A stretch of 64,000 bases of DNA from Cladosporium halotolerans (taxonomy: Eukaryota), in assembly GCF_011745625.1 (NCBI RefSeq), contig NW_027191469.1, positions 1-64,000 on the forward strand, given 5' to 3'. Positions 6,532 through 48,697 of the stretch are shown one piece after another. The notes under the pieces were generated by a model. The model was not told the DNA's origin, ran no database searches, and saw only the letters and a program-made list of their open reading frames with translations. Position 1 is the first letter of the stretch, and the number at the start of each line of letters is the position of its first letter. Made by a program: the position numbers and the translations under genes.

Positions 6532-6856
6532 CAGAAACTTGGATGCAACGGAGAAACGCGCAGTCCTGGACTAATGGACCTTACGTGTACGAGCAAGGCG
6601 CTGTTGTTGTGCGATTCGGAAGCTTTCAGTCACGTGACCAACCTATCCCGGGCCAAGACAGTCAGCTCCGATTGCGCACGGACTCGCGCGTCGCGTCGGT
6701 AAGGCAGCCATTCCCGACCTCCTGAAGTTCTGCATCGCTCTCCTTCATCCCTCTCCCAGCTCCACGACACTATCAGCGTCAAAGTACCTGTCATCAACTC
6801 CATCGCATCCCCGAACCTTTCGGTCAACTCTTTGAATCCCTGTGCCTTCGTCCGTA

Positions 6857-9674
6857 ATGGCGAGGCTGGCTGCTTCTGCCCAGTCGGCTGCCCGTCAAGG
6901 CTCGACGCCCGTACGAAGCACTCGTGCCACGCGTGCTCAGAGCCATGAGCCTGACGAGGCGCACGCACAACGTCGCTCTGCGCGGAATGCGAAACCCGCC
7001 GGGGCCGAGAATGCCACATCCGTTGAGGTTCCAGAGAATGCTTCTGGCAAAGGTGCGTTCCATCACATTAACCCTAACCCTACCGCGGGGAGCCCCAATC
7101 CTGACCCTAACCCAAACCCCAATCACCCAATCCTGGACCGGATGCATGCGCCTAAACCGATCTCTCGGAGACGTTTGAGGACACTTTCGAGAGCCACGCC
7201 AGAGCGAAATGCGCGGAAATTTGGGTTATGCTCACGATATCCTGGCCTGCCCACGGCGCATTCTCGAAAGACCTCGTTCTAGGATCAACATGCTGACACC
7301 CATGCCTTTTGGCGCGATCGCGAGCGATGCGACTCTTCACTCGTGACAATGCTGACCGAGTCTAGACCTCATGACCGTCGACGAGGACGCCCTCGAAGAA
7401 GACCAAAACATCGACTTGAACCTTCACGGCTTCGATCAAGCCCAGCAGCACGCGCCCAACCATGGCATGTCACCCGCTAGGACCTCCGCAATCTCCGGCA
7501 CTACGATCAAAACATCTTTTTCGATGGAAGAAGTCGAAGAACTCGACTCCGATGTCATGCTTGACTCTCTCAAGAGCTTCAACGATGCCACTGAAGCCCT
7601 ACTGGAGATCCTTGTCCCCACTCAAGCGGAAGATCTCGGCGCCGTTTGGGAAGAGATCGCAACAGAAGGTACGAAAGCGTACAAGCTCTACCAGAAGCGC
7701 TTGTCCGCCTTCCTTCTCTACAAAAGCGACTACACGACCACGCAAGATTACGTTCGACCGCACAACGTGTCTCGCGCGTTGTTTGATGTGCGTTCGGTTG
7801 ATGAAATCCCGCCGGGTACACCAACACCCGATAGCGTTCTCTACAAGGCGAACTTGGCCTACTTGCTGCACTTGTTGCTCATCAAATTCGACGGTCCTGG
7901 CATCTCTGCGGCCGAGAGTACTGAGATCCTAGAAGGAGCCGACCAGGCATTCCCAACAGTTGTGGCCGGACCATTCTACGATCCCATGGCTTTGAACATA
8001 TCTCTTCAGATCACCCGCCAACTGGCTATCAATCGCATGGCTTCCTTCGTGGAGGATCCACAATACAATCCTCAGGGTTTAGCCACCCATGCGTTTTTTT
8101 CGGAGGACGATGAAGAAAACAAGCAGGTCTACCGTCACGGACACGCTCTGCACTTGGACTCTGTGAGCGATCAGGAATCGAGGGCAGCCCTGGATCGAAT
8201 CTACAGCATCGTCAATGCGCTTAAGGAGCCGTACGGCGATGACGCTTCCGAGATTGATCCAGTGGAAGCCGCGAAAGGCCTGCGCGAAACATTTCCTTGG
8301 AGAGCTTTTGTAGAGGACACTCTTGTCCAATACTTCGCGCATCGCAAATTCCAGCTTGATAGCGAGATGCAAGCAGCACACGGCATGAACAACCTCGACG
8401 TCCAAATCAAACATGCTGTGGCGAACAAAGAAGATTTGAAAGCACTGGGGTCCCTCACCGTGAAGGTGGCGCAGTCTTCTGGAAAGTCGAAGATGTCCGC
8501 CCCTCCGGACGAGATTAGGCGTCTCAAAGCGTTCGCTCAAGCAGCCAATACTCCCACAGTAGCAACAGCGAGAATGGCTCCCGTGGCGCAGATGACCACT
8601 TCGTCGACTTCAATCCATCATCAAGATGACTATCCGCAATCAGCTGAACATGATGAGCCTGCCACTGGACCATCGCGCAGTAGCATTCACGACCTATCTG
8701 AATTTCAAAACCTCCAAGCTGCGCAAAAACAGAAAGCAGGCTCGAAGGGCAAGGGCAGGTCCTTCAACGATCGTCAGGCTGGAGCACGTCGCGTTGAATG
8801 GGATGAAGACCCGCAATCTCAGTACACCGGCAGCCCGCAGACCCAAAGCGGCCTGGGCAAGAGATCCCGAGCGGGCGAGCAGCTTCGAAGCAGCCCCGCA
8901 AAGAGGAGCCGTGTCCATGAGGAGGACTGGGAACCCACGCAAGATGGTGGTCCGGATGATGAGCCCGCTTTTGAGACCAAAGCAAGCGACGACGCGGCTG
9001 CGGATGAGCGCCGCCGTCAAGCGCCGAGCGCTCATCAGAGTGCTCCTTCCGAGCTCCGCCAGCCATACTACACTCGTCCAGCAAGTGAAGTCGATGCGCA
9101 AGGTTTCCAGCAGAGCTCCCCTCAACGCCGCAATCCTGGTGCCGCTATTCCCGGGCCGGCTGATCCTCCGTCGACCACCAGCGAATACCCATATTCACAG
9201 CAATACGAGCAAGCCGCTCGGCTTGCGAAACAGCAGCGGGTTCGACATCATGCACCCGTAGCTCGTTCGCGACATGCGTGGTCGCCAGAAGAGACTAATG
9301 CGCTCATGAAGTACATCCAAGAGTGGCCGGAAGAGGACAGTCTGCACTACGCATCCATCAAGAGGATGGACAGTTCCGCGGATGGCTACAAAGCTTTCAA
9401 TTCGCCGACCGAAAGGACCGCGGAGGACATCCGATTCCGAGCAAGGAACATGAAGGTCAACATGCTTCTGTAAGCAAACATCACATCTAGATCAAGCTCT
9501 CGCGAGTACAGTCACTAACTTATCAACAGGTCTCGAGCGGAGATGCATCCCAACTGGAGCAAAGTCCAGCTTGCCAAAAAGGAGATCGATAAGCTGCATG
9601 GTCGGGGCATACCGTATGTCCAGAATGGTCTTCGCGGTACTGCGACCGCCGATTCTCTCGATCAGGACGCGTAA
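6857..9674 (+). CDS. Telomere-repeat-binding factor-like protein (TRF/Taz1/Tbf1-type C-terminal Myb telobox domain); exons 6857-7052, 7366-9469, 9530-9674
   Basis: Both introns (GTGCGT...GCTGAC...TAG; GTAAGC...ACTAAC...CAG) keep the frame. The C-terminal WSPEETNAL...YASIK...RTAEDIRFRARNMKVNMLL resembles the telobox Myb consensus (W..EE..AL...RT..DLKDK.RN.K). The helical N-terminal half and disordered linker fit TRF-like architecture. Confidence 0.75.
7069..7134 (+). repeat. Telomere-type (CCCTAA)n cluster inside intron 1 of the TRF-like gene
   Basis: Perfect TAACCCTAACCCTA at 7069-7082, followed by degenerate CCCCAATCCTGACCCTAACCCAAACCCCAATCACCCAATCCT at 7093-7134. Confidence 0.85.
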
Positions 9675-10314
9675 TAGCGCAGTGCTGCGCTGATGCTGTG
9701 CGGTCTGGAACTGGCTTGCAAGATCACAACAGCGATGTCTCTGAGATCAAATTGGGCTGACGGTGGTCGCGTCTCGAAGAATGTTATTTCCCTGTTGTTT
9801 CTTACTTTCTCGGTCTCTTGTGTGTATTCTTCTGATCATAGAATTGTTGGGTTTATTTCATTGGAATGTGACAAAACTCTTCAAAAGTACCATGACCTGG
9901 CATTGTACGCAACTGCTAGCTATCATCAGCAGCGCGTGCTGCCCATAGTTCTGATTCCATGTTTCAGGTGCACGTTCATCTCCTTGGGAGATGCCATGTA
10001 CGAGCACTCTTGATATTTTACGTTATTCGTCGTCACGGAATTTTTCGATCTCCCAACAGGACACTTCAATTTATCCTAGGTTCGAGAGGAAGTGAAATGA
10101 TAACTTCCTGAAACGGCATAGCGGAGTCGCTGGAAGGGCAAGCAGATGACGTCTGTTGGCTGGCAGCCGAGGAATCATCAAACGCCGCCTTTGGCCTGCG
10201 AGGGCTCTCGCGTTACGTCCTTCCATGTGCTCTACAATTTCAAAAGAAAACCCCAGCCTCGCATCCTGACCCACCAGCCTCTCATTGTCGGACTGGCCAT
10301 TCTCAGCTCACAAC

Positions 10315-44832: not shown

Positions 44833-45966
44833 GCTTGTTGTGTTCCTGGGTGGGAGATAGAGAAGGGGAAGATGAGAGAAACACTACAAATACCTACCGT
44901 AACAGCTTTCTTTATATTTATCGAGCCGGCCCCTCCGTCGATGCCCCTCGCCCCTCGTAGGCGGATGGAGACGACAGATGCGGGTCTCGTCGCCCTTGCG
45001 GGTGACGGCGCTACAGGGCGGCGTGGGCGGGTGGGGCGGCGGGCAGTTCAGCTTGCACCGTCATGCCGGCCAAGACGCGCGAGATGAGTCGGCGGCGACA
45101 CAGGCGAATTGCAGCGGCCGCGCCAAAGTGCCGCAGAAGCGTATTGACATGTCGAGCAGGTCGCCCAGAGCAGGCACATGTGCAGCGGGTGATCTTGGCC
45201 GCGGATCGTCTTTCGTGCAGACGGTGCAGTACGTAGAGCTTGCGTCGCCGGCGAGTGCGGCTTTTTCGTATCAAGGGCCAATCGCCGGCTGCTTGTGCTG
45301 CCTTAGCCGACGGGTGCAGGTCATCCTGCTGCCCTGGGTTCAGTTGGTGGCCTCATGAGCCTCATAGGGAGAGGCACGAGGGCCTCCAGGGCTAGCACAG
45401 GTCGGCCTCTGCCCTACGGTCCACGCTCGGCCGAGCAAACATGCACGGCTACCGGGACGCCGCAGCCTGCCAAGCGAAGCGAGCAAACGTGGCCTGGGCG
45501 GTGGGAGCAGTCCGTCCGTGATTCCACACCTGATGCGCTGTCCGAGCTCGTGCCCAGCGCTTTCTGAGACGTTCTATCGCCAGCGGAGCTCGAGGCGGGT
45601 TGATGGGGATGGCGGCAGGGTTAGAGATGAAGTCGGGGTTGCTGAGACGGCTGCCGTGTCGAAGAAAGGTTGCGGGAGGGCTACGGCTCGGCGAGCGGCG
45701 TAGTCTACCAATCATTTGCGTGAACGCGTATAAGACAGCCTGTGCTATGCTATAGCGCGCTCTGAACGTCGTCTGCGTGTTGCTTAAACTTCTGTCTGAG
45801 GATATCAAAGCGGCAGCAATCCTTCGGCGGTCTGTTGTGCCGAAGCGCCTTGTAGGGCGGCGCCTCGATGCAGCCCCAGCGGCTAAAGCTGCCTCGCGCA
45901 ATCTATCTATGCAGCTATTTTACCCTTTCAGTACAGCCAGCCCTAAATGCAGCGCCTGACTCGCAA

Positions 45967-47783: not shown

Positions 47784-47800
47784 ACCCTAACCCTAACCCT
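47784..47800 (+). promoter_or_regulatory. Perfect telomeric tract ACCCTAACCCTAACCCT (candidate Tbf1/telobox site) in the divergent CoA-transferase/RIB5 promoter
   Basis: 17-nt perfect CCCTAA periodicity between the ATG at 47585 (-) and the ATG at 47924 (+). Confidence 0.6.
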
Positions 47801-47923
47801 TCCGGGACCATCCTTAGCGCCTGACGCAGGTCCCAGACCCCACCAACAGTGACACAATCGACATCCTCGACGATCACCCACCACCTCCACCACCGCCCAC
47901 CCCTCCCAAGAACCCCCGCCAAC

Positions 47924-48697
47924 ATGTTCACCGGCATCGTAGAAACAATAGGCAGTACGTCGCCCTCCGCTCTCGCCCCGCCCACCCTCCCGCCAGCGCG
48001 CTGACACCGCAGCCGCACAGCCGTCTCGCGCCTGGCGCAGCACGACGCCAGCTCCAGCGGCGGCGGCGGCACCAGCCTGACGATCTCCGGCTGCGGCGAG
48101 ATCCTCACCGACTGCCACCTGGGCGACAGCATCAGCGTGAACGGCACGTGCCTCACCGTGACAGAATTCGGCAAAGACGAGTTCAAAGTGGGCGTCGCGC
48201 CCGAGACGCTGCGGCGCACGAACCTGGGCTCCCTGAAAGAAGGCAGCGGCGTGAACCTGGAACGGGCGGTGAGCGCGCACACGCGGATGGGCGGGCACTT
48301 CGTGCAGGGCCATGTGGACACGATCGCGGAGGTGGCGGAGACGCGGCAGGACGGGAATGCGATCACGTTTCGCTTGAAGCCGCGGGACAAGTTCGTGCTG
48401 CGGTATATCGTCGAGAAGGGGTATGTGACGCTGGACGGGGCGTCGCTGACGATCACGGCGGTGGATGATGAGGAGGGGTGGTGGGAGGTGATGCTTATTG
48501 CGTACACGCAGGAGAAGGTTGTGATGGGGAAGAAGAGGCAGGGCGAGGATGTGAATGTCGAGGTGGATATGGTGGGCAAGTACGTGGAGAAGAGCGTGGC
48601 GGCGTATTTTGAGGGGAGCGGAGCGAGCGGTGGAGCCATGCTTGAGAAGATGGTGCAGCGGCTTGTGGATGAGCGGATGAACAGTGTAGCGAAGTAA
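47924..48697 (+). CDS. RIB5: Riboflavin synthase alpha chain; exons 47924-47954, 48021-48697
   Basis: Invariant N-terminus MFTGIVE; GDSISVNGTCLTV; RMGGHFVQGHVDT; KGYVTLDGASLT; VNVEVDMVGKYV. Confidence 0.96.

Follow-up and report, generated by a model that had tools for sequence, protein, structure and literature searches.

Telomere-repeat units in the first intron of a TRF/TBF1-family gene of Cladosporium halotolerans: a conserved block with a possible feedback role

Why a gene whose predicted product resembles telomere-binding proteins should carry telomere repeats inside its own first intron, and whether these repeats act on the gene itself, is the question raised by a locus at 6857 to 9674 of a 64,000-nucleotide (nt) stretch of Cladosporium halotolerans DNA (assembly GCF_011745625.1, contig NW_027191469.1, positions 1 to 64,000 of the forward strand), hereafter the window. 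The repeats form a short block close to the 5' splice site of intron 1, and a block of the same kind, in the same orientation, is found at the equivalent place in every orthologous locus compared. The pattern of conservation suggests, with a confidence that we put at about even, that the block may be a selected cis-regulatory DNA site for TTAGGG-binding Myb factors, which would feed back on the gene that carries it.

The first intron and its telomere-repeat block

The features of the 5' part of the gene, all on the forward strand, are as follows.

6857..7052, forward strand: exon 1 (196 nt, 65 codons plus one base), with an open frame from the ATG at 6857, contained in the spliced contigs
7053..7365, forward strand: intron 1 (313 nt, GTGCGT...CTGAC...AG, phase 1), its joint seen in sequencing runs X3, X6 and X8
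7069..7082, forward strand: perfect C-strand run of telomere repeat, TAACCCTAACCCTA, its start 16 nt past that of the intron, with two overlapping AACCCTA units
7093..7134, forward strand: decayed C-strand array (CCCAAT CCTGACCCTAACCCAAACCCCAATCACCCAATCC) with one more ACCCTAACCC unit, including a one-mismatch match at 7105-7116 and a weak Tandem Repeats Finder row
7280..7282, forward strand: TAG, the first in-frame stop when intron 1 is retained, closing an open reading frame at 6842..7282; the retained form would encode a truncated peptide of 141 residues
7352..7356, forward strand: CTGAC, a branch-point-like motif 9 nt 5' of the acceptor, whose columns C, T, A and C are invariant in nine of nine introns (CTRAC; alignment A2)

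Four sequencing runs (X1, X3, X6 and X8) out of 24 listed were examined. Contigs skipping exactly 313 nt (7050->7364, cut +2, GT..AG, with 7052 joined to 7366) were recovered from X3, X6 and X8, i.e. from three of the four runs and from three studies, while X1 is contiguous DNA from a relative about 97% identical. X3, X6 and X8 behave as RNA; their coverage is confined to about 6780-9815, with zero depth in the flanks. The GT..AG borders, the branch-point motif and the removal in RNA together characterize intron 1 as a spliceosomal intron. Its donor reads G/GTGCGT from 7053 (the slash marking the splice site), and its acceptor AG lies at 7364-7365 and is followed by AC CTC ATG ACC, so that the exon junction reads ...SGK D/LMTVDED, in frame. 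The interval, the length of 313 nt and the in-frame splice proposed in a first-pass annotation of this DNA are thereby confirmed, and its remark that the intron is unusually long agrees with the roughly fivefold difference from intron 2 (60 nt). Exon 1 encodes a basic N-terminal peptide (MARLAAS...RRSARNA...SGK). The X3 and X6 contigs end at 6777/6778, that of X3 with an adapter-like loose end, which gives a weak hint of a transcript start near 6777.

The run TAACCCTAACCCTA contains the full ARCCCTAA at 7070 and ARCCCTA at both 7070 and 7076, a match to the Tbf1-type consensus; in the available text of PMC5416754, the consensus of Saccharomyces cerevisiae Tbf1 is ARCCCTAA, of which AACCCTA is the core. 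When the window of 64 kilobases (kb) was searched for TTAGGGTTAGGG with at most one mismatch, three matches were recorded (7072-7083, 7105-7116 and 47785-47796), all with the C-strand on the forward strand, against a mean of 0.03 in shuffled sequence; none of 100 shuffles gave three matches. The position and sequence of the perfect run and of the array at 7093-7134 are as the first-pass annotation had described them, and its statement that the only other multi-copy tract lies near 47784 is borne out by the same search. Tandem Repeats Finder returned a single weak array (7110-7132, period 8, score 32), and the stretch 7093-7134 is therefore described as a decayed rather than a clean array. Counted singly, the hexamers show no enrichment in the window (9 CCCTAA and 1 TTAGGG at 55.6% G+C), and the clustered copies alone stand out; ARCCCTAA occurs three times on the forward strand and not at all on the reverse strand. 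A scan for bacterial promoters and terminators returned no sites and is irrelevant for a fungus.

The opposite-strand TTTGGGTTA at 7220-7228, which had been counted with the repeats, is present, but its membership in the conserved element did not stand. Relatives carry a 1-nt deletion at 7225 inside it (X1 and X6), with a frame change in P0169, a within-species strain variant 97% identical in which the perfect run is intact; the antisense unit is hence not under constraint. As antisense units also occur in none of the nine orthologous introns, it was dropped from the element. Downstream of the repeat block, intron 1 shows within-species polymorphism.

Conservation of the block and repeat units elsewhere

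Metagenome contigs were scanned with the family alignment, giving 18 loci. Six (L012-L017) were dropped because the 5' end is missing, one (L007) because it has 100 nt upstream only, and three as duplicates (L004, part of L018; L011, part of L005; L008, with the same upstream sequence as L009). The eight distinct loci kept (L001, L002, L003, L018, L005, L006, L009 and L010) encode proteins of 42-52% identity to that of the window. All eight share the same exon 1 (MAKVSASA..TRATR.QSREPQQ.QRRSARNA..), which is also found in protein P0004 of Cladosporium fusiforme, a member of the Dothideomycetes. Intron 1 is present at an identical position and codon phase in nine of nine loci, the window included; in the eight orthologues it has a phase 1 donor G/GTATGTG, a length of 154-226 nt and the ending CTAAC..YAG/AYCT.

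Within the first 90 nt or so of intron 1, at least two sense-strand ARCCCTA/AACCCTA units were found in every one of the nine loci, the first CCCTA lying 20-32 nt past the donor. The nine introns together hold 18 sense and 0 antisense copies of AACCCTA in 1,966 nt, against 7 sense and 0 antisense copies in the other 113,150 nt of the same loci, a density about 300-fold lower per strand; when each intron was shuffled, the observed ARCCCTA count was attained in only 0-10 of 5,000 shuffles. The state of the array differs between two groups of loci: the L005 group keeps intact runs such as CCTAACCCTAAC and ACCCTAACCCTA, and in the L001 group the array has decayed into separate AACCCTA-type units spaced 8-20 nt apart. 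Compared across the three clades, exon 1 has 57-67% identity, and the intron past its first 90 nt has 26-54%, no better than a random alignment. ACCCTA is the sole invariant internal block of the nine-way alignment (A2) besides the donor, the branch point and the acceptor, so that a Tbf1-type site stands out as a phylogenetic footprint in nine of nine loci. The first-pass annotation had set the absence of repeats from orthologous introns as a test of its idea, and the opposite was obtained, with at least two AACCCTA units at the equivalent place in all eight loci as well as in the window. Judged by this conservation, the block is a selected element and not a chance repeat, since it is kept in position and strand in nine of nine loci and is rare elsewhere.

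The National Center for Biotechnology Information (NCBI) model of the C. fusiforme protein (P0004) reads ...GMRLSSSSSPLTLTPNPNPNF... at the equivalent spot, which, as far as can be read back from the protein, would correspond to the donor GGTATG and translated telomere repeats. Public models of the gene (P0003, P0004, P0005, P0006 and P0014) are inconsistent, several beginning inside or after intron 1 with exon 1 missed, and that of C. fusiforme translating the telomere repeats of the intron into TLTPNPNPN. The repeats can be read as Asn-Pro codons, which is why exon 1 is absent from many public models or the intron is translated in them.

Outside the TRF/TBF1-like gene, AACCCTA occurs three times in the window and not at all in the flanks of the other eight loci. 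Of the seven non-intronic copies, four are accounted for by an AAACCCTAAG that the TRF/TBF1-like gene has in its promoter in L001, L002, L003 and L018. In the window, a tandem ACCCTAACCCTAACCCTT lies at 47784-47801, with the C-strand on the forward strand, and the ATG of a riboflavin synthase gene follows about 125 nt further on, at 47925 (MFTGIVETIG; Lum_binding, E 1e-33); the orientation of the tract relative to that gene is as in the intronic block, and it is likely a promoter site for a TTAGGG-binding factor. A further ARCCCTAA at 45939 is on the 3' side of a minus-strand gene. Some 215 nt ahead of the start codon there is a CACGTG box, both in the window (6641-6646) and in L001 (about 3417), L002 (about 776), L003 (about 1455) and L018 (about 3415), the latter four loci, the L001 group, having AAACCCTAAG about 30 nt downstream of it; the L005 group has CATGTG instead. 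Cbf1 and Tbf1 are paired at ribosomal-protein promoters of Candida albicans, an arrangement of which CACGTG with AAACCCTAAG is reminiscent.

The encoded protein and its recognition helix

The remaining features of the gene, on the same strand, are those of the protein and of the second splice.

7366..9469, forward strand: exon 2, open reading frame P0001, with a TRFH-like helical domain, a disordered middle and a Myb-like domain
about 7518-8540, forward strand: predicted TRFH-like helical domain (AF2 model and Foldseek)
9273..9469 (approximate), forward strand: predicted Myb-like three-helix domain with the variant recognition helix RTAEDIRFRARNMKVNMLL (AF2 and Foldseek; Pfam Myb sub-threshold)
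9470..9529, forward strand: intron 2 (60 nt, GTAAGC...CAG, phase 2), joint 9469 to 9530 seen in X3, X6 and X8
9530..9674, forward strand: exon 3, conserved C-terminal tail (..NWSKVQLAKKEIDKLHGRGIPYVQ..) with the stop TAA at 9672-9674; the tail is kept in full-length homologues

The AF2 model of the exon 2 product covers residues of about 50-390 with pLDDT of about 80-97. When its helical domain was submitted to Foldseek, ranks 1-5 were all taken by Tbf1 structures, namely Schizosaccharomyces pombe 6k5s (E 3.7e-4 to 3.2e-3, TMt 0.66-0.74) and the N-terminal TBF1 structure 8x6e, and the hit after these was at E 0.024. The model thus predicts an N-terminal all-helical domain of the TRFH type, for which dimerisation is itself a predicted trait. 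For the Myb-like domain the model was built from P0068, an orthologous fragment, and an alignment of 80 sequences (pLDDT 87.9). The seven highest-ranked Foldseek matches of this model are Tbf1 structures of the Myb or C-terminal part (8x6d, 8ynu and 6k5u), with TMt of 0.52-0.76 and E of 0.011-0.47, and human TRF1 Myb follows at rank 16.

A single C-terminal three-helix domain of the Myb/homeodomain-like type is hence recognized by fold, and its sequence evidence is weak. The Myb profile check proposed in the first-pass annotation gave a Pfam Myb match of E 0.01 and 16.4 bits, under the cut-off of 24.4; Pfam TRF had no match in the window protein, and the Pfam search of P0004, P0005 and P0015 together with the window protein gave sub-threshold Myb at most. 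Neither the family profile nor the last 118 residues of P0005, used as queries in sequence searches of the PDB, gave a relevant match or a Myb hit. An exhaustive profile search collected 632 homologues, one of which, P0118, passes Pfam TRF (28.1 bits against a cut-off of 25). A word-index protein search with alignment A1 added one further protein only, and that with the exon 1 read-through peptide returned only the strain variant P0169. By its predicted architecture the window protein is a member of the TRF/TBF1 family, as both domains match Tbf1 structures best; the link rests on folds.

The protein had been taken for a telobox Myb protein, of which the family holds and the canonical helix does not. 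The recognition helix of the window protein reads IRFRARNMK (RTAEDIRFRARNMK) and lacks the canonical telobox pattern (..LKDK.RN..); we take LKDKARN to be the canonical helix of Tbf1, and the name 'telobox' and its consensus in the same sense. The third Myb helix is recognisable in 98 stored homologues, 68 of which carry [ILM]RF[KR]ARNMK and 30 LKDKARNMK, with a core ARN[ML]K common to both types. Both types are accompanied by the TRFH-like domain, an N-terminal TR.TRSQSRE motif and a conserved tail LP.NF..V.L.KK....L...GI.Y.Q (P0001-P0168). The two types are probably paralogous, like Tbf1 and Tbf2 of Neurospora. The available part of PMC4650311 describes a pair of Tbf-like proteins in N. crassa: ncTbf1, and ncTbf2 (NCU01991), which shows 'weak homology to Tbf1' and binds duplex TTAGGG directly; the species has at least six duplex TTAGGG binders in all. 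That the window protein is of a type that corresponds to ncTbf2 is a guess.

Possible action of the block and competing explanations

Unspliced contigs of intron 1 were found in X3 (record 4, 7023-7393, depth 9.4 against 43 for the spliced form) and in X6 (record 8, 7137-7393, depth 3.4 against 5.4), contig depth being a poor and rough measure of retention. They are unlikely to derive from contaminating DNA, because the untranscribed flanks are at zero depth in X3 and X6. No unspliced contig of intron 2 was found in X3, X6 or X8. These observations suggest that intron 1 is removed less completely than intron 2. In the retained form the frame of exon 1 is open across the repeats (..INPNPTAGSPNPDPNPNPNHP..) to 7279. 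Translation from the ATG that comes next, at 7371, would yield a protein without the basic 65-residue N-terminus.

In the proposed mechanism, the block would lay out at least two sense-strand AACCCTA (= TAGGGTT) half-sites about 290-360 nt past the probable transcript start, and as double-stranded DNA it would be a landing site for dimeric factors of the TRF/TBF1 Myb type. The binder may be the gene's own product, a relative with the canonical telobox, or both, and the output of the gene would then be set by the free nuclear pool of such protein. Occupancy could act on elongation or on the removal of intron 1, with retained transcripts ending at the TAG at 7280-7282; an effect on either is conceivable because the sites are transcribed and adjoin the 5' splice site. 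A DNA site for dimeric Myb proteins fits the presence of at least two half-sites, the drift of their spacing, the constancy of the 7-nt unit and the promoter unit of one clade. The TRF1 dimer has two flexibly tethered Myb domains, which variable half-site spacing would suit. Feedback is the natural reading since the host gene itself is of the TRF/TBF1 family.

The principle has a precedent in yeast. The available text of Lavoie et al. 2010 (PMC2834713) places S. cerevisiae Tbf1 at its own promoter, with 'probable auto-regulation', and reports this as absent in C. albicans. As the binding of yeast Tbf1 to its own promoter is in print, the principle of Tbf1 self-regulation is already known, and the claim that the arrangement was undescribed is too strong to that extent; the conserved intronic position of sites in a Tbf1-type gene was not found in a literature search with most subscription journals outside its scope. 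Like TBF1 of S. cerevisiae, the present gene has the family consensus ARCCCTAA in its own 5' region; unlike the promoter sites of that gene, the putative sites are clustered here in the first intron, past the start codon, in three clades. What is new is the place: intronic, transcribed, 16 nt past the 5' splice site and conserved. We know of no such intron in yeast TBF1.

Other systems resemble the locus in part. Preti, in 2010, reportedly described Tbf1 as a general regulatory factor at promoters of the snoRNA, ribosome-biogenesis and ribosomal-protein kind. The short unit studied here would likewise be an extratelomeric DNA site of the type known for Tbf1 at those promoters (PMC5416754, available text), and the second tract of the window is also upstream of an ordinary gene, but the general-factor sites lie upstream of the transcription start, whereas the present cluster is transcribed and stands beside a splice donor. 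The plant telo-boxes (AAACCCTAA) resemble the block in layout, being single or few orientation-biased telomere units just past the transcription start that serve as sites for telomere-repeat-binding Myb proteins. TRB Myb proteins bind them in 5' untranslated regions and introns; these belong to another kingdom and have a different architecture (N-terminal Myb and H1/5 domain), and to our knowledge telo-boxes have not been described in the binder's own gene. Among yeast Myb-type factors, Reb1 and Rap1 show both auto-regulation and a roadblock to RNA polymerase II, in that a factor bound in or just past a promoter can lower the output of the gene, its own included; they are other factors at other sites, and a polymerase block is conjectural here. 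Vertebrate intronic short interstitial telomeric sequences share the hexamers in an intron and the possible recruitment of shelterin-type Myb proteins, but they are mostly lineage-specific and neutral, unlike the present block, which is short, decayed to a minimal unit and kept in distant orthologues. Ribosomal-protein genes of the RPL30 type have their first intron spliced under the control of their own product, which acts near the 5' splice site, and unspliced transcripts are non-productive. That control is exerted by an RNA-binding protein on RNA, whereas the product here is of the predicted DNA-binding Myb type and a putative DNA site is what is conserved.

The most serious competitor, though in our judgement an unlikely one, is that the block serves as a general promoter-proximal element and carries no feedback meaning, the kinship of the host gene with TRF/TBF1 being incidental. 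Its binder might then be canonical Tbf1, a Tay1/Teb1-type protein or a zinc-finger TTAGGG binder, giving a nucleosome-free 5' region or enhanced transcription, as at housekeeping genes. The tandem ACCCTAACCCTAACCCTT upstream of the unrelated riboflavin synthase gene, in the same orientation, suggests that the repeat may be such an element, as do the upstream CACGTG box in the window and four orthologues and the variant recognition helix, which leaves self-binding uncertain; furthermore, Tbf1-like motifs mark ribosomal-protein promoters in C. albicans and N. crassa, as far as the available texts go (bioRxiv 10.1101/2025.02.27.640643; PMC2834713). On the other hand, the unit is rare outside the gene yet clustered in it in nine of nine orthologues, its transcribed position beside a splice donor would be unusual for a plain promoter site, and yeast Tbf1 does bind its own gene (PMC2834713, available text). 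An RNA-level element, in which a CCCUAA-type run 16-80 nt past the 5' splice site would control the splicing of intron 1 and retention would lead to the premature stop, is a still less probable explanation. It would act through a C-rich-RNA-binding protein or through pairing with G-rich telomeric RNA or DNA, and it draws on the strictly kept strand and donor distance, on the lack of antisense units in nine introns, on the partial retention of intron 1 but not of intron 2, and on the block being predicted unpaired in RNA. A single orientation is, however, also expected from the decay of one ancestral tandem array, and what is conserved is a 7-nt unit of the Tbf1 DNA type with variable spacing; neither a longer RNA motif nor a fold is kept (z-score 0.50; 137 of 200 shuffles fold at least as well). 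In addition, a search of 6600-7600 against Rfam (E <= 1) matched no intron-borne RNA family, and four loci have the unit in their untranscribed or 5' promoter region as well.

The two remaining explanations are contradicted by the conservation and by the splicing. A neutral interstitial telomeric sequence, left as a scar of telomerase-mediated break repair or grown by slippage as a microsatellite, would agree with the decay of the array in the window, but such a tract is expected as a lineage-specific insertion absent from relatives. The block is instead at the same spot in nine of nine loci of three clades, the eight other loci included, in introns that are otherwise unalignable, and the within-species variant P0169 keeps the perfect run, so that neutrality is very improbable. 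The reading of the repeats as a coding Asn-Pro repeat (INPNPTAGSPNPDPNPNPNHP) in a longer exon 1 has the open frame to 7279 and the translated stretch of the C. fusiforme model in its favour, and yet its probability is close to nil. The RNA contigs splice the repeats out, the intron length is not a multiple of three in any of the nine loci, and the donor GGTATGTGA gives a stop codon right after the splice site in eight of eight orthologous loci; these three observations rule the coding repeat out for the main transcript.

Several points weigh against a feedback site and are to be set beside the evidence for it. The helix IRFRARNMK departs from the canonical LKDKARN, and at the positions presumed to contact bases in TRF1-DNA structures the window protein has Phe in place of Asp and Glu in place of Val; owing to this departure its specificity for TTAGGG is uncertain. 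The Myb domain itself is sub-threshold in Pfam, and its Foldseek E-values are only 0.011-0.47. Another factor may occupy the intronic sites, because Neurospora has at least six TTAGGG binders, and the paralogue or another such binder is an equally good candidate for the block. The riboflavin synthase tract and the single orientation of all units, which an RNA-level element would also give, count on the same side, as does the roughness of contig depth as a measure of retention. The orthologous DNA, moreover, is made up of metagenome contigs of three clades, probably all of them Dothideomycetes. With these points considered, a selected DNA site that may feed back on its own gene is the reading retained here, at the even confidence stated at the outset.

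A more specific version of this reading, the putative dosage sensor, is doubtful and is put forward tentatively. Surplus protein of the TRF/TBF1 type, left over by the telomeres, would bind the intronic half-sites and stall RNA polymerase II or hinder splicing of intron 1, transcripts would be diverted into the retained form with its premature stop, and expression would thereby track the amount of telomeric DNA. Cells have to keep their supply of duplex telomere-binding protein in step with their telomeric DNA, a balance of which the known accounts are largely the protein-counting models of yeast and mammals. The block can readily be mutated and so offers a tangible handle on the question of whether free TRF/TBF1-type protein regulates its own synthesis, via elongation or via splicing. 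Public models of the gene are prone to lose exon 1 or to translate the intron, which gives the structure reported here a value for annotation as well. The two Tbf1-like sequence types of filamentous ascomycetes, differing in the recognition helix, also make cross-regulation possible. The dosage sensor, if true, would add to telomere-length counting an arm that works through transcription and splicing and that a fungal class has conserved.

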